A stretch of DNA of 64,000 nt from contig CAWJEN010000005.1 of assembly GCA_963841915.1 (NCBI GenBank), positions 224,001 to 288,000 on the forward strand, written 5' to 3'. The notes under the pieces are model-generated. The model saw only the letters and a list, made by a program, of their open reading frames with translations, made no database searches and was not told the origin of the DNA. The DNA comes from an uncultured Planctomycetota bacterium. Its GTDB lineage: Bacteria > Planctomycetota > Phycisphaerae > Tepidisphaerales > Tepidisphaeraceae. The stretch's first letter is position 1, and every line of letters starts with the position of its first letter. Shown here piece after piece: positions 1 to 60,403 of the stretch. The position numbers were made by a program, and so were the translations under genes.

Positions 1-336
1 GAGCAGGGGTGTCGGCGACGCCGCCGGGCCGAGCGAGACCAGGCCGACGTGAACCACGTTCGCGGGCGACTGAACGACGGCCCCGGCGCCTGCATACCGC
101 GTCGGCGTTCGGCTGCCGTCGGTCACGAGGATCGCCGACCCGTCGAACCCCGCCACGTCGACGTTCACGTCGAACGTCAGCACGAGGGAAACGTTCTGGC
201 TAAGTGGGTTGAACGCCGCCGCCGTCAGCGTCGGCCGTGTCGGCGACGCCTCCGTCCCCCGATTCCGCCGTCGCCCCATCCGACGCACCTTGGCGGGCGT
301 GAAGGTCGCTGCGAGCTCGGAGGATGCAATAGACAT
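1..336 (-). CDS. Hypothetical beta-rich protein, runs off the window edge; not in the supplied ORF track
   Basis: Manual translation from ATG at 336: MSIASSELAATFTPAKVRRMGRRRNRGTEASPTRPTLTAAAFNPLSQNVSLVLTFDVNVDVAGFDGSAILVTDG..., open to position 1 with GC3-rich codons; co-oriented downstream of 961..1641. Confidence 0.7.
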   Translation of the reverse strand, partial: MSIASSELAATFTPAKVRRMGRRRNRGTEASPTRPTLTAAAFNPLSQNVSLVLTFDVNVDVAGFDGSAILVTDGSRTPTRYAGAGAVVQSPANVVHVGLVSLGPAASPTPLL

Positions 337-351
337 GACAAGAACCTTCAG

Positions 352-410
352 AATGGACCCGGTGCCCGGTGCAATGGACCCGGTGCCACGGTGCCCGGTC
401 CCCGGTCTCC
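352..410. repeat. Short heptamer/21-bp direct repeats abutting the hairpin array
   Basis: AATGGACCCGGTGCC at 352 and 373, followed by CCGGT(G/C/T)C-type heptamers. Confidence 0.65.
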
Positions 411-981
411 GGTGCCACGGTTTGAGCCGCCGTCTGCGGCGGGCAAACCGTGTCTGCATGACCTGGCCTCGCCGACACGGATTGCCCGCATCGGAATGCG
501 GCTCAAGCCGTGGCACCTCGGACCTAACACGTCGCGGATCGACGTCGACAACGACTACGCCGCGATCTTCAGGGCCTGGTTCGCCGCGTTGGTGGCCGTC
601 GCGCCCGATCCCCGGTGCCACGGTTTGAGCCGACGTCTGCGGCGGGCAAACCGTGTCTGCATGACCTGCCCTCGCCGACACGGATTGCCCGCATCGGAAT
701 GCGGCTCAAGCCGTGGCACCTTGAACCTGACACCTCGCGGACCGACGTCGACAACGACTACGCCGCGATCTTCAGGGCCTGGTTTGCCGCCTTGGTGGCA
801 GTCGCGCCCGGTCTCCGGTGCCACGGTTTGAGCCGACGTCTGCGGCGGGCAAACCGTGTCTGCATGGCGTGGCCTCGCCGACACGGCCTGCCCGCATCGG
901 AATGCGGCTCAATCCGTGGCACCTCGGACCCGGCACCTCGCGGATCGACGTCGACAACGACTACGCCGCGATCTTCAGGGC
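400..981. repeat. Three tandem 203-bp units, each with a ~107-bp imperfect palindrome (REP/REPIN-like) and a copy of the ALKIAA-stop gene end
   Basis: GGTGCCACGG...CCGTGGCACC hairpins start at 411, 614 and 817; CTACGCCGCGATCTTCAGGGC at 555, 758 and 961; exact period 203. Confidence 0.95.
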
Positions 982-1641
982 TGGCTGTTCCCCGGTGGCG
1001 ATGGGCGTGACGGAGGCAACATTGCTGCCGAACAGCACGTTGAACGTCGCCCACATGCCCGCCGCAGTCGAACGGACGGCTTGCATCTTGTACGTGATCT
1101 GCGTCGCCCCGGCCGGGATCGTCGCATCGACGAACTTGCGGCTGCCGACACCGCCGAGGTACTCGAAGTCGAGCGACCCGTTGACGCTCCGGTAGACCTG
1201 ATAGATCGTCCCGCTGGTGCCGGCGGGGTTGTCGCACTTCCAGCTGAGCATGAGCTCGCCGTTGCCGTTGACTTCTGACTTGAGCTCGTACGGCGTGCCG
1301 GGGGCCGGCCGCGGGCTCGGGCCGCTGGGCACCGGAATCTCGGCCAGATTGTAAATTGCGTCGCCGTCGACGTCGGCCGTCGCCCGAATCTGCGAAATGA
1401 TGGCCGAGCCGGCCGATGCCATGTTGCGGACAGCCTCGTAGAACGTTTCCGTCGCGGCTCGTGCCGCCTGTTGTGCGGCTTGCTGCGCGTTGTACGCGTC
1501 GCGGGCAGCGGTCGTCTTCGTCTCCAAAGCCGTCACGCCCGCCGGGTCGACGCCCAGCGTCGCGGCGTTCGTGGACCAGGGGCCGACGTGGTTCTCGTAG
1601 AACGAGACCTTGTCGATTCGTTTGCGGGGAACAACGATCAT
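961..1641 (-). CDS. Hypothetical protein: N-terminal Ala-rich helical region, Pro linker, C-terminal fibronectin-III-like beta-sandwich
   Basis: Probable start ATG 1641 (MIVVPRKRIDKVSFYENH); PGTP..L......GELMLSW.......TIYQVYRS......EYLG......FVD......TYKMQAVRS pattern is FN3-like; ends LKIAA. Confidence 0.8.
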   Translation of the reverse strand: MIVVPRKRIDKVSFYENHVGPWSTNAATLGVDPAGVTALETKTTAARDAYNAQQAAQQAARAATETFYEAVRNMASAGSAIISQIRATADVDGDAIYNLAEIPVPSGPSPRPAPGTPYELKSEVNGNGELMLSWKCDNPAGTSGTIYQVYRSVNGSLDFEYLGGVGSRKFVDATIPAGATQITYKMQAVRSTAAGMWATFNVLFGSNVASVTPIATGEQPALKIAA

Positions 1642-1756
1642 GGCGTGTTCTTTCCGGAGCGGCTGCTCCAACGGGCAAGCGACAATGGGTTGAGGCGTCG
1701 GACCCGATCACGCCGACCGGGCCGCTGAACGCGGATGAAGTTCGCTTGCAGCCCAG

Positions 1757-1784
1757 GCATCGGCAGCACCCATCGGTTGCTTGA
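1757..1784 (-). promoter_or_regulatory. sigma28 (FliA/WhiG)-like promoter
   Basis: Minus strand TCAAG-N15-GCCGATGC, ~115 bp upstream of ATG 1641; sigma28 consensus is TAAAG-N~15-GCCGATAA. Confidence 0.55.
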
Positions 1785-1841
1785 CGACGACGTACGATTT
1801 TCTTGATCGTGTTCGCGTCACGTGGAGCGGCAAACAACTCT

Positions 1842-1920
1842 GGTGGCACGGGTCGCGTCTGCGAAACCCGTGTCGGCGATGGTTCCCGACACGGGTCTCG
1901 CAGACGCGACCCGTGCCACC
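1842..1920. repeat. 79-bp near-perfect palindrome (REP-like, related to the 411-type hairpins)
   Basis: GGTGGCACGGGTCGCGTCTGCGAAACCCGTGTCGG / CCGACACGGGTCTCGCAGACGCGACCCGTGCCACC. Confidence 0.9.
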
Positions 1921-2071
1921 TTCGGCCGAACCCCTTCCCGTCTCGAATGCCATCGACAGATCGGTGTCCTCATGCTCCGATAGCTCACCCGGTCCGGGAA
2001 CATCGCCCGTTCGCGACTGCCAACGCCGGTCGTCCGAGAACAAGGTCCAATCCTCCCGATGACCGACGATT

Positions 2072-2295
2072 GTTCATCGACGCACAACCACCGGTCATCA
2101 ACGCACCACGGCCGGTCATCAACGCACCACGGCCGGTCATCAACGCACAACCGCCGGTCATCGACGCACCACGGCCGGTCATCAACGCACAACCGCCGGT
2201 CATCAACGCACAACCGCCGGTCATCAACGCACCGCCGCGGGTCATCAACGCACCGCCGCGGGTCATCAACGCACAATCGCGGGTCATCCCGGAAC
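2072..2295. repeat. 21-bp-period array, ~10.5 units: 14-bp constant core + 7-bp variable segment
   Basis: GGTCATC(A/G)ACGCAC at 2093, 2114, 2135, 2156, 2177, 2198, 2219, 2240 and 2261, with degenerate units at 2072 and 2282; linkers AACCACC, CACGGCC, AACCGCC, CGCCGCG, AATCGCG. Confidence 0.95.
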
Positions 2296-2646
2296 CGTGC
2301 CGACATCAGTGCTGCGATAAGGGTCTGACCTCTAAACTTCGTTTACTTCCCTTCGTTAACCCCTTATCTTCGTCCTTTCTGATTATTCTCGCACCTGATC
2401 TGCTAGCACCGGGCCGGATAGACTGGCGAAATCAGAGGGTCGAGACAGAGCCCGATGTCCCCGTTTCGACCCGCCCTTGCCTCCTTCCCCACCGGATCCG
2501 GCTCCCGAACGCTAATCCCTGCGACCATGTTCCTGCACAGATGTCTAGGTTTCTGCCCGTGTCGTCTGCTTTGGTGACCCGTTCATCAACCCTGCGAGAT
2601 TGATACCGTATCGTCGCACGCTCGCGTACCAAGATAACAGTCAACA

Positions 2647-4911
2647 ATGCTGAAATCGCTCGTCCTCGATAACGTCGCAACGTTCAGGACCCGCACGGAG
2701 ATGGCAGACCTGAGAAAGGTCAACTACATCTACGGAGCTAACGGGACGGGCAAGACGACGATCTCCCGTGTACTTGCTGATCTCGCGGGTCATCCACGCT
2801 GCAGTGCGACCTGGGCCGACGGAAAGGAGGTGAGGTGTTTGGTTTACAACCGCGACTTCCGCGCGCAAACACTTCCGGCAGGACGCATCCGTGCCGGGCG
2901 TGTTCACCCTCGGTGCCGACCTAGTCGAGCTTCAGGAGAAGATTAAATCGGCGAAGAAGGAGATGGACCGCAAGGAAGAACGCATCCGTGACATGAACGT
3001 TGAACTCGACGGGGATGAAGAACACGAGGGGAAGCGTAAGCAGCGACGACAAGTCGATGAGACCCTGAAAACGGCCGCGTGGACGGTGATGAAGACCCAT
3101 AAGAGCACATTCCAGCAGGCGTTCAAGGGTGTCAGTGCGGACAAAGGCAAGTTCCTGAACCGCCTCCTCAAGGAGCGCCGAAGAGAACACCGCCGAGCCT
3201 GCAGCACAGCAGGATCTGGAGGCGCGTGCGGCCACGCTCTACGGGACCGCACCAGTACGCGAAGTCGGCGTTACCGAACCTGTCGTGGGATGCGATCATG
3301 CGGTGCGAAGAGCACCCGCTGCTTAGCAAGGTCATCGTCGGGAGCGCTGACGTCGACCTCGCCGGACTCATCGAGGCGTTAGAGCATGGGGACTGGGTCA
3401 AGGCGGGATTGTCGCATCTGGAGCGGACCGACGGCTCATGTCCCTTCTGCCAGCAACCGGTACCGGACAAGCTCCGGTCTGACCTAGACGCCTTCTTCGG
3501 GGGGAGCTACCAGGCGGACATCGAGGCACTCGCCGATCTGGTCGCCGACTACAAGCGCCACGACGCGGCGCTGCGTCAATCGTTAGACGACCTCGCCGAA
3601 CGTGGTACCCCGCGCCTCGACGCGGCGCTTTTCGAGGCGCACCGTCAGGCGATCGTCTCCGTCCTCGACGAGAACCACGCCACCCTCCTCACGAAACAGG
3701 GTGCTCCGGGTCAAAAGGTAACGCTCAAATCCATTGGCGACGTCGTCACACCACTCGCCGACCTCATCACGGAAGCCAACGCCGCTATCAAGCAGCACAA
3801 TGCCCTCGTCGACAACCGGCACGAAGAGACACGCGAACTCACGGATCAGGTTTGGCGTCACTTGATCGACGGTCCGCTGAAGAACTCACTGGACAAGCAC
3901 AAAGCCGAGGTTGAGAGCCTGAACAAGGCAATCGACGGGATCACCACGAAGCAAGTTACGGCCGAGAAAGAACAAAACCGCCTGAAGGCGGAACTCGCTG
4001 CATTGGAGCGGAAGGTGACTGGTGTCGTCCCGACCATGACGGCGATCAACGACTTGCTCGAGGCCTACGGCTTCGACACCTTTCGACTCGCCGAAGCGAC
4101 GGGTTCCTCCAACGCCTACGAGCTCCGCCGGCCGGACGGCACCGCCTGTGGCGACACCCTCAGCGACGGGGAGCAAACGTTCGTCACGCTTCTTTACTTC
4201 TACCACCTAGTTTGTAACGGCAGTCACGAGTCGGACGCCGTCACCACGCCCCGCGTCGTCGTCTTCGACGACCCGGTGTCGAGTGTCGACGGCGACACGC
4301 TCTTCGTTATAAGCCACCTGATCCAGGACGTGATCAAGAGAGTACGGGAATCGTCAGACAGCCAATCGCAGGATGGTGGGGGCGAAACAGGAGAGGTAAC
4401 GCAGGTTTTTGTGCTAACGCACAATGTCTACTTTCACAAGCAGGTTGCGTTCCACACGAAGCGGCAGAAGGGAAAAGCTTTTAAGGACGAGACATTCTGG
4501 GTCGTCCGCCGCGTGAACACGATGTCGACAATCGAGCAGCACGACAGGAACCCGGTCCGTGATTCCTATGGCCTCCTGTGGGACGACGTCCGCGACCAAC
4601 AGCGCAGCGCTAACCAACTCTGCAACACGCTGCGCCGCATCCTTGAAACCTATTTCAAGATGTTTGGCTCGGTTGACCTGCGCACTCTTGAGGACAAATT
4701 CGACGGTTCCGAGAGGGTCTTGTGCGCGTCGCTACTCTCCTGGGCCCACGACGGATCGCACGCGGCGATGGACGACCTGCACGCCGCTCAAAGTCCCGAC
4801 GCCAGAGTCCGTTATCTCGCCGTGTTTCGGAAGATCTTCGAGAAGCACAACCACCTCGCTCACTACAAGATGATGATGGGTGACAACGCAGATAAATGCG
4901 GAACGGAATAA
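2647..4911 (+). CDS. RloC-like AAA_13 ABC-ATPase with zinc hook and C-terminal HEPN-like domain; three apparent +1 frameshifts (~2860, ~3176, ~3258), either assembly error or pseudogene
   Basis: Walker A YGANGTGKTT, VYNRDF, coiled coil with CPFCQQ hook, LSDGEQ signature, VVVFDDPVSS Walker B, VLTHN H-loop, NTLRRILETYF...SWAHDGSH; split over supplied ORFs 2647, 2891 and 3226. Confidence 0.85.
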
Positions 4912-5817
4912 GGGGTCAGCCCCCTCGGGGGCAGAATAAGGGGGGGGCAGAATAAGGGGGGGCAGAATAAGGGGTCAGACCCCTTGAACCTACCGGCATT
5001 CCACGCGAGGTCAACGCCGTGCGGGTCCGCCACCGTCGAGGTGAATACGGGTGGTGCGATGCTTAGCAGGCGACGTGGCTCAAGTGTCTCGAACGCGACG
5101 CGGCGTCGTTCACGCGACGGTCGCCGCAGGAACGCTGCCAGCAGCGCCAGCGGGGCGACGACGCCCGTCGGCTCGGGGACGTAGAGCGAGGCGACGATGC
5201 CGAACGTATCGGTCGTGCTTGCTAAGAAAATCTCATAACCGGCCGTCGAGTCGGTGACGATATAGGCCACGTCGAGCTGCGTGATGTCGGCGGACGCCGG
5301 CAGTTCGTAGTGGCCGTAAACAAAGCCGCCGAGGAACCAACTAAACGGCCCGCCGACGTCGGGCGGGTCCGCGTAGGCGACGAGGGGCGTGCTGGGCAGC
5401 GGGCTGTTGGCGATCCGCTGATCGAACAGCGGGTCGACCTCCGAGATGTTGACGTTGAACGCCTCCGGCGGCGGCGTCAGCACGTGGCTGTCGAAGTTCA
5501 TCGCCGACGGCACCAGGTTCTGCGCGTCGTCGACTGGGCTGGTGGCGGTGTAGTTGCCGGTGCCGGTCGGGTCGGTCCAGCGTTGGTGCAGGTCGCCGAA
5601 GGCGGCACCGGCGATCTGGTCCTGCCCGGCGGACGCCCATGTAGACGAGCGTGATGGGGTCGTCGCTGGTGACGCGGAGGGTGAAGCCGCGGAAGCCGTC
5701 GAGGGTGGTGGTGCCGTCGGTGGGCGTGCCACGATCAATGACGTCGATCGTGATGGCCGCCGGTGCGGCGGGGGCGAGGGCGAGGCTGGCAAGAACGGCG
5801 ATGAGGAACTTCGGCAT
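4863..5817 (-). CDS. PEP-CTERM sorting-domain protein, frameshift ~5631, reading through into a LEPRxLL motif and truncated by a repeat
   Basis: Signal peptide MPKFLIAVLASLALAPAAPA (ATG 5817); VPEPTGVVAPLALLAAFLRR at ~5180-5120; then RERRRVAFETLEPRRLLS; FKGSDPL tail is repeat-derived. Confidence 0.75.
4904..4985. repeat. GGGGTCAGACCCC-type REP-like element with tandem GGGCAGAATAAGGG units
   Basis: CGGAATAAGGGGTCAGCCCCC...(GGGGCAGAATAA)x3...GGGGTCAGACCCCT; contains the TAA of the ATPase gene; related TAAGGGTCTGACC near 2318. Confidence 0.75.
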
Positions 5818-35904: not shown

Positions 35905-36134
35905 CAATGTTCACGTTCTGTATGAGAACGTGCAGATTCTGTTCCGTTTTAATCCGTCCTGAAGCGGAACGTGCACGTTGCGAGGCAGAACGTGACGGTT
36001 CCGTCGCGGAACCCGCACGTTCCGCCGTGGAACGTGCAGGTTCCGGACCACAGTCATCACGTTCCCGCGTAGAACCTGCACGCTGAGGAGCGAAACCTGC
36101 ACGGTTTGGAACGAAAACGCGCGGTTCCGTGATG
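35905..36134. repeat. Degenerate 21-bp-period array, ~10 units: palindromic 14-bp core GAACGTGCACGTTC + 7 variable bp
   Basis: Units at 35905, 35926, then 35967, 35988, 36009, 36030, 36051, 36072, 36093, 36114; one 20-bp interruption at 35947-35966. Confidence 0.85.
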
Positions 36135-36210: not shown

Positions 36211-36238
36211 TCAGAAAAACCTTTGTTGTGGCCGACAT
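36211..36238 (+). promoter_or_regulatory. Degenerate sigma28-like promoter
   Basis: TCAGA-N15-GCCGACAT, same spacing and similar distance to gene as 1757-1784. Confidence 0.4.
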
Positions 36239-36345: not shown

Positions 36346-37044
36346 ATAAATCTCTCCTCCATCTTCAACCATGACAGCGACTTGCTCGCCCGGTCGGCAG
36401 TCTTCGCCGCCAAGATCAGCGCGACCGGTGCGGCCGGCAACTACGGGCTGAGCGATCAGCAGGCAACGGAATATCAGACCACCTAGACCCGTTTCGCCGA
36501 TGCGATGCGGGCCGTGGCCGACCGGGACAACCGGACCCGGACCGACACGATCGTCAAGAACGACGCCCGTTACCACCTCGTCAACGCCAGCCGGAGCCTG
36601 ATCGCCGTGTGTGAGGCGTGGCCCCAGATGACCGACGCGAAGCGGAGCGAGCTCAACCTCCCGATCCGCGATCGGGAGCCGACCCCGCAGACGCGGCTGA
36701 CGGTCGCGCCATTCATCGACATCCTGAGCCAGAACGGGCTGTCGGTCAAGGTCGGCCTGCGCGACGCGGCCGCGTCGACCCGACGTCGCCGCCCGGCGGG
36801 CGCGATCGGGGCGACGATCCTGACGCACGTCGGCGAGACGGCGCCGGCCACGATCGAGGGCTGGACCTTTCAGGGCAACACGAGCAAGACGACGGTCGAC
36901 ATCACGTTCCCGCCGATGACGCCGCGTGGGGCGAAGGTCTGGATCGTCGCGACGTGGTTTAGTCGGACGTCGATGAGCTCGCCTCCCAGCCGTCCGCTCT
37001 TCACGTACCTCTCCGGGGCCGACGGGCTCGCGCAGGCGGCCTGA
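36346..37044 (+). pseudogene. Helical + beta-sandwich hypothetical gene with in-frame TAG and apparently lost start
   Basis: Frame of ORF 36505 extends upstream as INLSSIFNHDSDLLARSAVFAAKISATGAAGNYGLSDQQATEYQTT*TRFADAM; TAG 36484-36486; ATA 36346 follows GGA; ends LAQAA. Confidence 0.7.
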
Positions 37045-37143
37045 CCCCGTCACCCGGTCATCTGACCGCAGGACCCGGAGGTGGCGATTCTCGCCATCGG
37101 CCGTGTTCTGCGTGGTCGGCTGGCCCTTTACCCAGGAGACATC

Positions 37144-38232
37144 ATGACGGATCTCACCGTGTACGACGCCGGGCGGCCTGCTGCGTCGCTGATCGAGCGA
37201 CAAGTGCCCGCCGCCCTGCCGCTGCCGACGGAGGCGGGCGGCGTGACGATTCGCGAGGCGACGGCAGGCGACCTGCCGTTCGTCGATCGCTTGCAGAAAC
37301 AATGCTCCAAGGCGCTGGGCTTCCTGATGCTGCCCGTGCTGGAGGCGAAGGTGCGGGCGGGCGAGATCGTCGTCGCGCTCGATCCCGCGGGCGAGCCCGT
37401 CGGCTACTGCATCTCCAGCGACCGCTACTACAAGCGGGAGGACGTCGGCGTCATCTACCAGGTCAACGTCGTGCCGGGCCGGCAGCGCGGCCTCGTCGGG
37501 GCGGCGATGGTCCGCGGCGTTTTCGAGCGTTGGCCGTACGGTGTGCGGCTGGCGTGTTGCTGGTGTGCGCAGGATCTGGCGGCCAATCGGTTCTGGGAGT
37601 CGCTGGGCTTTGTGCCGATCGCCTATCGCGGCGGCAGTCGATCGAAGCAGCGGGTGCATGTGTTCTGGCAGCGTCGCGTGCGAGCGGTCGACGCCGGTGG
37701 GGGGTGCGACTGGTGGTACCCGAGCCAGACGATGGGCGGGATGATGGGCGAGGGGCGGCTGGTGCTGCCGATCCCGCCGGGCACGCATTGGAGCGGGTTC
37801 GAGCCGATCGTGCTGCCGGAGATGGAGACCGAACCGCCCGCCCTGCCGCCGGCGACGAAACAGCCACGGAAGAAGGCAACCCAGGCGAAGGTGCCGACGA
37901 TCGATCCCGGCAACATCAGCTCCGGCGGCTTCCGCTTCGAAGCCACTCCCCCCACGCCCCCCACTCCTCCAACTCCCCCCATCCTAGGAAGCGAGGCTGT
38001 GGCCAAGCCCAGGCGGGCCAAGGCGCCACGGCCGAAGCTTGACCCGGCGCTGGTTCGGAAGGTGCGTGAGCTTCGCGATCACTATCTGGAGCACGTCAAT
38101 GCCAAAGAACTGCTGTGCCCGATGGGCAAGTACGACATCGCCAGGTCGCTGGCGGGATCGACGGCGGATGCGGCGGCACTGCCGTCACTGAAGATCGAGT
38201 CGCACGTCGTGCCGCGGCTCGAGGCGGCTTGA
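37144..38232 (+). CDS. GNAT-fold acetyltransferase with Pro/Lys-rich C-terminal extension
   Basis: AGGAG RBS before ATG 37144; IREAT..DL, VGYC, QVNVVPGRQRGLVGAAM, ANRFWESLGF. Confidence 0.75.
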   Translation: MTDLTVYDAGRPAASLIERQVPAALPLPTEAGGVTIREATAGDLPFVDRLQKQCSKALGFLMLPVLEAKVRAGEIVVALDPAGEPVGYCISSDRYYKREDVGVIYQVNVVPGRQRGLVGAAMVRGVFERWPYGVRLACCWCAQDLAANRFWESLGFVPIAYRGGSRSKQRVHVFWQRRVRAVDAGGGCDWWYPSQTMGGMMGEGRLVLPIPPGTHWSGFEPIVLPEMETEPPALPPATKQPRKKATQAKVPTIDPGNISSGGFRFEATPPTPPTPPTPPILGSEAVAKPRRAKAPRPKLDPALVRKVRELRDHYLEHVNAKELLCPMGKYDIARSLAGSTADAAALPSLKIESHVVPRLEAA

Positions 38233-60285: not shown

Positions 60286-60403
60286 CGCGAAGGGGCGAAG
60301 GGGCGAAGGTCAGAAGCAGATGAAGGGTGCCCGTTAAACGCGCTTAACCCGTTCCTGCTCTGCTCTGCACTTCGCTCAGACTTTGCCCCTTCGCTTCTTC
60401 GCG
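60286..60403. repeat. GCGAAG-type short-repeat inverted element
   Basis: CGCGAAGGGGCGAAGGGGCGAAG ... CTTTGCCCCTTCGCTTCTTCGCG; related GCGAAG run at 62350-62383. Confidence 0.65.

Follow-up and report, generated by a model that had tools for sequence, protein, structure and literature searches.

Rows of tandem sites next to bacterial genes are known from several systems, and a spacing of 21 bp corresponds to two turns of the helix. Iterons (R6K, P1, F, pSC101) are direct repeats of ~17–22 bp at a spacing of about two turns, present in 4–10 copies next to a gene and with a sequence specific to the replicon. Response-regulator stacks, such as those of BvgA at Bordetella Pptx and Pfha or the PhoB and OmpR boxes, comprise 2–6 sites with one motif and one regulator, and in tandem-repeat centromeres (F sopC, 12 x 43 bp; R1 parC; pSK41) the bound protein forms a superstructure. 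To our knowledge, the sequence of iterons, centromeres and activator stacks is always tied to one cognate protein. Dimers of P2-type C repressors bind cooperatively to direct repeats two helical turns apart (PMC2995052). Here we describe arrays of 21-bp units that stand upstream of a family of genes for proteins with a helical region and an FN3 domain, starting from two such cassettes in a 64,000-nt window (the whole stretch analysed: positions 224,001 to 288,000 of contig CAWJEN010000005.1, assembly GCA_963841915.1) of an uncultured bacterium of the Tepidisphaeraceae (Planctomycetota; Phycisphaerae). The source genome, G000, comprises 3.63 Mb at 64% GC in six contigs, and the window corresponds to G000:C5:224001-288000.

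Arrays of 21-bp units and the genes behind them

The first cassette (copy 1) lies on the minus strand near the left end of the window, and its gene is here called P1. Its parts, in order along that strand, are as follows.

2072..2288, minus strand: array 1, 10 units of 21 bp (Tandem Repeats Finder (TRF), motif lattice)
1843..1921, no strand: near-perfect hairpin with a 37-bp stem, between array 1 and the promoter (dG -52.2 kcal/mol, z -13.3)
1759..1784, minus strand: sigma28-like promoter TCAAG-N15-GCCGAT, with a leader of 117 nt ahead of the ATG at 1641
961..1641, minus strand: P1 gene, 226 aa, ending ...ALKIAA (translation of the open reading frame (ORF))

For array 1, TRF gave a period of 21, 10.2 copies, 90% matches and 0% indels, and the core GGTCATCAACGCAC (plus strand) recurs from position 2093 to 2261 on an exact lattice, in steps of 21. 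The variable part of the unit is one contiguous 7-bp block with 2–3 variants; when the unit is split as 14+7, the core columns are 98% conserved and the variable block 79% (permutation p 0.012).

The array is associated with the gene beyond chance, and its place is upstream. Within G000, 7 regions reached a lag-21 self-identity of at least 70%, against 0–3 for every other lag from 10 to 39, and TRF found ten period-21 arrays with at least 4 copies. A lag-21 identity of at least 0.58 within 1.2 kb upstream was seen for 6 of the 15 family members in this genome; among 3000 random 1350-bp stretches of G000, 1.2% reached 0.55 and 0.6% reached 0.6. The layout was then followed within the Planctomycetota, using 29 homolog loci, 28 with usable upstream DNA, which overlap with a set of 60 loci with longer flanks from other Phycisphaerae. 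Lag-21 identity of at least 0.6 was found upstream at 25 of 28 loci and downstream at 1 of 29 and, in the larger set, upstream at 44 of 60 and downstream at 2 of 60. The best lag between 8 and 69 was 21, 42 or 63 at 50 of these 60 P1 loci. At 13 more distant loci from other Planctomycetota, which carry the gene type of the second cassette (P2-type), the best lag was 21, 42 or 63 in every case (13/13), with lag 21 at 0.6 or above upstream at 10 and downstream at 0. TRF repeats were called in 39 of the 60 P1 upstream regions, and 37 of these 39 had periods that are multiples of 21 (21 in 24 regions, 42 in 10, and 63, 126 and 147 in one each; the other two had a period of 10). For the 44 loci with lag 21 at 0.6 or above, the array has a median length of 236 bp (11.3 units) and ends a median of 267 bp before the start codon. 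The dedicated pairing of array and gene that had been proposed from the window (the original prediction) is thus present across the class and the phylum, and the 21-bp autocorrelation expected upstream of homologs was found.

Further 21- and 42-bp arrays of G000 stand before genes outside the FN3 family, at C5:499001-499250, C6:1304308-1304610, C2:22381-22520, C6:1327241-1327404, C5:866932-867096, C5:946857-947015 and C3:162408-162580. Judged by eye, a membrane NERD-like gene and, after it, an ECF-sigma-like gene occur twice behind these arrays, the other genes being GIY-YIG-like and BatA-like.

The second cassette (copy 2) lies on the plus strand and is more worn.

35905..36134, plus strand: array 2, ~10 degenerate units on a 21-bp lattice, with a 16-bp palindrome, GGAACGTGCACGTTCC, as core (motif lattice, TRF)
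36382..37044, plus strand: P2-type gene, a remote P1 homolog, disrupted by an in-frame TAG and with no clear start
37144..38232, plus strand: GNAT-like partner gene, 362 aa from its ATG, with an alternative GTG at 37081, ending LEAA (weak Pfam match, homologs, paralogs)

About ten sites related to GAACGTGCACGTTC occupy 35905-36114, with one 41-bp double step, and are far more degenerate than those of array 1. The dyad of this array has an arm of 10 (p 0.005), and its strands fold with a z of -6.8. The TAG (36484-36486) falls within the conserved helical region, and the longest ORF left, 36505-37044, encodes 179 aa ending AQAA. The original prediction, which had given both loci the same parts, stands for copy 1 and in part for copy 2. 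Ten or so units of 21 bp are present in both, degenerate in copy 2; the 14+7 layout holds for array 1 and fails as a general rule (3 of 41 arrays, see below); genes of similar length, ~230 aa, are not what is found, given 226 aa in copy 1 and the interrupted frame in copy 2; and the promoter-like motif is borne out upstream of P1 only, as TCAGA-N15-GCCGAC of copy 2 (36211-36236) has 3 mismatches to the family motif. The co-oriented partner genes of the two copies are homologous, as GNAT-like proteins of 40–41% identity.

The family motif itself was defined between array and gene at other loci. T[TC]AAG-N15-[GC]CCGA[TA], allowing at most 1 mismatch in the last 300 bp before the start, was found in the sense direction at 15 of 26 loci and in the antisense direction at 0. 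The interval from -800 to -500 gave 2, and 300 shuffles averaged 0.24, with 2 as the highest count. Spacing is strict, whereby spacers of N13, N14, N16 and N17 were matched at 0, 1, 0 and 0 loci, respectively. In the larger set, the motif was present at 28 of 60 loci, with a median of 105 nt from its end to the start codon; between the end of the array and the -35 element lie a median of 102 bp (n=22). Among the P2-type genes of G000, it was exact at one and had one mismatch at two, with none at up to 2 mismatches for copy 2. A scan of the whole of G000 gave 45 exact matches against ~10 expected, which says little because most matches lie inside genes.

The motif shares with sigma28 (FliA) promoters a -10 element GCCGA(T/A), an A-rich -35 element ending in AAG and a fixed spacing. 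One flagellin gene of G000 carries TAAAG-N15-GCCGAT, with the same 15-base layout, and a FliA gene is present in this genome. Co-occurrence with FliA was dropped as a discriminator because FliA is near-universal in the class, scoring above the cut-off in 287 of 301 genomes (one genome in this count, G277, is unpublished). The E. coli sigma28 consensus is TAAAGTTT-n11-GCCGATAA, or 14 bases between TAAAG and GCCGAT (PMC2859248). Measured against this, the cassette spacer of 15 is one base longer, and the -35 element reads T[TC]AAG, not TAAAG. From the motif we infer that the cassette promoter may depend on sigma28/FliA.

The encoded proteins, their tails and the surrounding DNA

The AlphaFold model of P1 (pLDDT, the predicted local distance difference test, 84.6) has two helices, 8-24 and a long one at 33-92, after which a Pro-rich linker leads into a beta sandwich; the tail is disordered and ends KIAA. 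In this model the beta sandwich, at ~109-206, is an FN3 domain: Foldseek returned FN3 matches at E ~1e-5, and comparison with FN3 by VIA gave a Z of 11.9 and a root mean square deviation of 2.4 over 94 aligned residues (model range 111-205). The helical half and beta half proposed from the letters were thereby recovered as a helical region plus an FN3 domain. The P1 and P2 proteins gave no match to each other by BLASTP; when the P1 family (25 sequences) was compared with the P2 family (6 G000 sequences) by hhalign, the result was a probability of 95.3%, with an E of 2.4e-8 over 166 columns. On the strength of this profile-profile comparison they are remote homologs, and the earlier view that they are alike in architecture only was wrong.

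Neither family is named by Pfam, PHROGs, NCBIfam or PADLOC, or through the PDB by sequence. PHROGs gave weak matches for P2 only and none for P1, and BFVD gave generic FN3 matches only. Together with Rfam, where no match passed, and the literature searched, in which no description of such arrays was found, this agrees with the original suggestion of an apparently undescribed system. A word-indexed search returned 114 P1 homologs at E<=0.01, every named one being "hypothetical". Among representatives at 50% identity, P1 matched 3454 at E<=1e-3, 1519 at <=1e-10 and 754 at <=1e-30, some of the weak matches being generic FN3 repeat proteins. The P1 profile matched 34 of 301 class genomes, in a patchy distribution and often in several copies, the copies per genome being lower bounds as the best 9 per genome were scored. 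Many matches lie 200–650 bp from contig ends; several copies sit inside complete one-contig chromosomes. With the P2 profile, the family was found in 5 of 151 phylum genomes, with 13 loci outside G000 at 41–64% GC.

At two of these P2-type loci, L140 and L145, from two genomes of another class, the gene is followed by an ORF of ~400 aa with reiterated "NGAVTTPKIADGA"-like repeats, fibre-like by eye. Within G000, contig C2 (39.6 kb) nearly duplicates C6:1304-1342 kb, including two arrays and two FN3-family genes (proteins 90% and 100% identical); this is either a large duplication or an assembly haplotype.

At least 537 homologs of the GNAT partner were found, many named GNAT and many with precomputed PF13508 annotation. 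The copy in the window scored 21 bits against PF13508, a weak match below the cut-off of 27. In its model (pLDDT 66), residues 35-178 form an alpha/beta core that a long disordered linker joins to a single C-terminal helix. A GNAT partner stands behind the FN3 gene again in G016 (P1 type) and G007 (P2 type), and at three places in G000 GNAT genes stand directly behind arrays.

Members of the family share a C-terminal tail. Of 107 full-length P1 homologs, 105 end in AA, with L, I or M at -3 in 96 and K or R at -4 in 104, so that the tail reads [KR][LIM]AA in ~96. AA ends were also found in 112 of 120 partner homologs and in 51 of 60 locus proteins. The transfer-messenger RNA tag of G000 is ADNAVAGRVGFNANSFAMAA, ending AMAA. 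Strong ClpXP C-terminal tags of E. coli follow the consensus [LFYW]-[LAR]-L-A-A, and the terminal Ala-Ala is described as critical in that species yet not sufficient (PMC10862746). By their tails, the cassette proteins are probably unstable, short-lived ClpXP substrates. In G000, AA is also the most frequent C-terminal dipeptide, twice as common as the next, and ends 205 of 3099 predicted proteins (6.6%), ordinary-looking enzymes included; either AA would be a weak degron in G000, or a large share of the proteome would be tuned for ClpXP.

The DNA downstream of P1 and around copy 1 holds the following further features.

401..981, no strand: 203-bp tandem repeat, 2.9 copies, between P1 and the downstream genes (TRF)
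1..183, minus strand: 5' part of a small co-oriented ORF of 102 aa that ends left of the window start (ORF list)
G000:C5:222808-223875, minus strand: GNAT-like partner of copy 1, 355 aa, outside the window (homology to the copy 2 partner)

The 203-bp tandem repeat comes directly after the P1 stop, and every unit has the last codons of P1 (...ALKIAA stop) at its start, followed by a hairpin of ~105 nt (z -5.8). The arms of the 1843-1921 hairpin, GGTGGCACGG and CCGTGCCACC, recur within these repeats. The cassette is neighboured in the window by an AAA_13/PDC-S06 pseudogene and an ABC-transporter gene. The former, a candidate defence ATPase gene divergent from array 1 (2647-4911), is split over three overlapping frames (2647-2946, 2891-3382 and 3226-4911) and would for that reason be frameshifted or contain sequencing errors. 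GC-rich tandem repeats of 8 and 15–16 bp (GCGAAGGG and GGGGGCAGAATAAGG types) were noted between genes at 4927-4974 and 60287-60309 of the window and at ~142.5 kb of G000:C6. In one case such a short repeat separates an FN3 gene from its GNAT partner; signals of period 8 occur upstream of several GNAT genes in G016.

What might read the array

If the protein read its own array, core and protein should change together. They were compared for 45 arrays, comprising the 44 of 60 loci with lag 21 at 0.6 or above plus copy 1, and the identity of the array cores was unrelated to that of the proteins (Spearman 0.05 over 990 pairs). One pair of proteins that are 91% identical have unrelated arrays, with 9 of 21 core bases in common against a shuffled mean of 9.8; for two pairs with proteins 80–85% identical, 17–18 core bases were in common. 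Related cassettes in different genomes have in common only a block from about -160 to +190 around the gene, the flanks being unrelated, and in one syntenic pair the array was kept at 78% identity against 85% in the flanks. Inspection of the sequences themselves bore out the absence of covariation. The core thus did not track the protein, and the proposal of a protein polymerising on its own phased sites was not supported; reading of its own array by the FN3 protein was rejected on these grounds. That geometry rather than sequence is conserved, as originally claimed, was borne out, the 21-bp period persisting as the cores change. The GNAT partner was also rejected as a general reader, being absent at the 60 P1 loci and present in 5 of 61 genomes, with no DNA-binding domain in its model. 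The absent covariation, the unrelated arrays of related cassettes and the lack of a shared neighbour (see below) argue against the FN3 protein, or any other protein encoded by the cassette, as the reader. A coding repeat was rejected too: ORFs run through array 1, but its variable positions lie side by side within 7 bp, and a step of 20 bp in array 2 would break the frame.

We put a probability of roughly 0.4 on our preferred reading, in which a multimerising protein, acting in trans, docks on the array along one face of the helix and from this upstream platform gates a sigma28-type promoter. In order, the cassette would consist of a period-locked array (median ~11 units), a spacer of ~100 bp, the promoter, a leader of ~100 nt and the helical and FN3 gene, with a small ORF and/or a GNAT-like gene added in some copies. 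Sites that are identical or nearly so, set every two helical turns, would allow a multimerising DNA-binding protein to coat one face of the helix over ~200–300 bp and thereby gate the promoter downstream, probably by silencing or conditional activation. The coating protein would be neither the FN3 protein nor otherwise encoded by the cassette, and would be supplied in trans. In-register unequal recombination would keep the array homogeneous, which would explain the 42- and 63-bp higher-order periods, and selection would act on period and repetition, so the sequence of the unit would drift fast. The ssrA-like [KR][LIM]AA tails would probably make the products short-lived, and expression would then be pulsed. 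The pairing of array and gene, the place of the array, the promoter motif, the homology, the tails and the missing covariation are observed; that a protein binds, which way it regulates, that sigma28 is needed and that the products are degraded are all steps that we infer.

Site-like features in some arrays are supported by the 14+7 layout of array 1 and by an excess of dyads. Dyads at a shuffle p<=0.05, scored on TRF consensus units, were found in 9 of 54 arrays against 2.7 expected (4 of 35 P1 arrays, 2 of 9 P2 arrays and 3 of 10 G000 arrays); palindromes, like the 14+7 layout, are therefore not general. Judged by their units, some arrays resemble a series of dimer sites, but the majority lack this appearance. 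At three orthologous loci (L074, L076 and L078), three copies of GGTTCTNGGAC with a 21–22-bp spacing lie at about -280 to -215, between the large array and the promoter, and these triplets are conserved where the large arrays differ; the triplet may be a genuine conserved binding site.

Several results weigh against the docking platform. At 32 of 60 P1 loci and 11 of 13 P2 loci, the promoter motif was not found. No DNA-binding domain was recognised in the models of P1 or the GNAT partner. When the ORFs in the 3 kb on either side of the 60 loci were clustered, neither a regulator nor any other neighbouring gene proved to be conserved, the sole exception being a small ORF at 4 of 60 that resembles the ORF downstream of copy 1, and inspection by eye upstream of the arrays at the 13 P2 loci showed no consistent small regulator gene. 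Related cassettes from different genomes have promoter and gene in common but unrelated arrays. In G000, ~16 arrays have ~14 different cores, so that reading by sequence would call for many different readers or for one of low specificity. Variable positions were clustered in only 3 of 41 arrays (those with lag 21 at 0.65 or above and a length of at least 147 bp, plus both window arrays) and 45 of 54 arrays have no significant dyad, so most arrays lack site-like internal constraint. On the sense strand of the gene, the arrays have an AT skew of -0.12 (T over A; positive in 11 of 44, p 0.0013), which symmetric operators would not predict. Finally, with 6.6% of the proteins of G000 sharing it, the AA tail may not mark instability in that genome.

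A second reading is an element in which the two-turn repetition itself matters and no sequence-specific reader exists; it would act through a coherent intrinsic bend or superhelical shape, as a preferred wrapping substrate for a nucleoid protein or as a supercoil-sensitive structure, and would serve an accessory gene as a silencer, an insulator or a topological barrier. The period is kept as the sequence changes, even between proteins 91% identical, position-specific constraint is absent from most arrays, and arrays persist from 41% to 64% GC. Inside arrays, ~1031 substitutions and ~44 indels were estimated over 5450 bp, indels being rare beside substitutions, in a ratio that has no neutral baseline. 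Against such an element, no 10.5-bp A/T harmonic was found in the units of 54 arrays (fractional power 0.107, equal to the other harmonics), on which ground A-tract-like curvature was rejected, and the long perfect palindromes or core-plus-spacer layout of some arrays suggest specific binding; we consider it unlikely. Equally doubtful, to our minds, is the broader proposal of a pan-bacterial class of regulatory DNA whose information would be helical phase, not bases, and which would gate a very large, uncharacterised family of short-lived helical and FN3 proteins; whatever senses its arrays, be it a lattice of proteins, a nucleoid protein or a structure driven by supercoiling, would measure two turns of the helix, and the arrays, regenerated locus by locus by in-register recombination, could change their sequence entirely. 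The strand bias is the main hint of transcription through the array, which might act as RNA: a promoter distal to it would give either an FN3 mRNA whose long leader contains the array or a repeat RNA of its own that stops at the hairpin. T-over-A and G-over-C skews are present in the arrays and the gap (the gap between array and gene is G-over-C rich at 35 of 44 loci), neither skew is seen in the 300 bp distal to the array, and in copy 1 the hairpin with the 37-bp stem follows the array. This is improbable, as the one promoter motif that is conserved sits between array and gene, a consensus scan of window positions 300-2700 found no sigma70-like promoter or terminator, and array 1 shows no RNA or DNA strand structure (fold z -0.78). 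Rfam matches, all below the gathering score, were hairpin look-alikes, so a known RNA was rejected, as was a guide or antisense RNA, since, by BLAST, the units of both window arrays match nothing else in G000.

Two further possibilities concern the behaviour of the array over time. As a contingency locus, it would gain and lose whole units through slippage or unequal crossing-over, shifting the distance from distal elements to the promoter, or the site dose, with helical phase kept, and so give an accessory gene heritable, reversible expression states. Young arrays are indeed highly homogeneous (copy 1, 90% matches and 0 indels), unequal exchange typically leaves higher-order blocks such as those of 42 and 63 bp, the family has several copies and a patchy distribution, and many copies lie 200–650 bp from contig ends, as if arrays break assemblies. 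We give this little chance of being right, however, given that the duplicated arrays at C2:489 and C6:1304308 are nearly equal in copies (11.7 and 11.4), that known simple-sequence contingency repeats have units of 1–9 bp and not 21 bp, and that degenerate old arrays such as that of copy 2 would slip poorly yet are kept. A maintenance or mobility site, where the array would serve a small mobile cassette as its iteron, centromere or recombination site, would account for a period and copy number like those of iterons and tandem-repeat centromeres, for cassettes in unrelated contexts in related genomes and for a patchy, multi-copy family (34 of 301 genomes). It is nonetheless very improbable: no gene of the Rep, Par, integrase or transposase kind is shared by the 60 loci in the 3 kb to either side, the arrays lie outside the block shared by related cassettes, and several copies are in complete one-contig chromosomes. 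A phage or plasmid origin was rejected as well, tblastn of P1 having given no match in 50,697 phage and 72,556 plasmid records, with the PHROGs and BFVD results described above in agreement.

Comparison with described systems

In this cassette, an array of 200–300 bp keeps its 21-bp period across a phylum with a sequence that turns over faster than the gene behind it, and that gene belongs to a large, unannotated family (at E<=1e-30, P1 matches 754 clusters of 50% identity). Should the array prove to be a control element, this would be an example of accessory genes gated by DNA geometry, and a direct way would open to the reader as well as to what the FN3 proteins do. In practical terms, such arrays break assemblies beside genes and create spurious heptad-repeat ORFs.

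Iterons resemble the cassette in period (21), copy number (10.2), tandem direct repeats and an adjoining gene. They differ in that the cassette gene encodes a helical and FN3 protein rather than a winged-helix Rep, that array and protein do not covary, that up to ~16 cassette-type arrays occur in one chromosome and that no plasmid or phage relatives were found. Response-regulator stacks likewise have sites every 21–22 bp on one face of the helix upstream of a promoter; the cassette, by contrast, has ~8–19 units of locus-specific sequence and no linked regulator. With tandem-repeat centromeres it shares long phased arrays, some units with dyads and a position upstream of an operon, but no ParA, ParM, TubZ or adaptor genes are shared at the 60 loci, and the cassette is chromosomal and multi-copy. 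CRISPR arrays, in which unique spacers of similar length part repeats of at least 21 bp, differ in that the whole unit here is 21 bp and its variable part is 7 bp with 2–3 variants; no cas genes were seen among the ORFs beside both arrays, though no cas-specific search was made. P2-type C repressors have two half-sites over the promoter, whereas the cassette has ~11 units ~100 bp upstream of it (PMC2995052). What is new here is a strictly spaced promoter between array and gene, arrays whose sequence does not follow that of the protein, the lack of a conserved neighbour or regulator gene and ssrA-like tails on the products.

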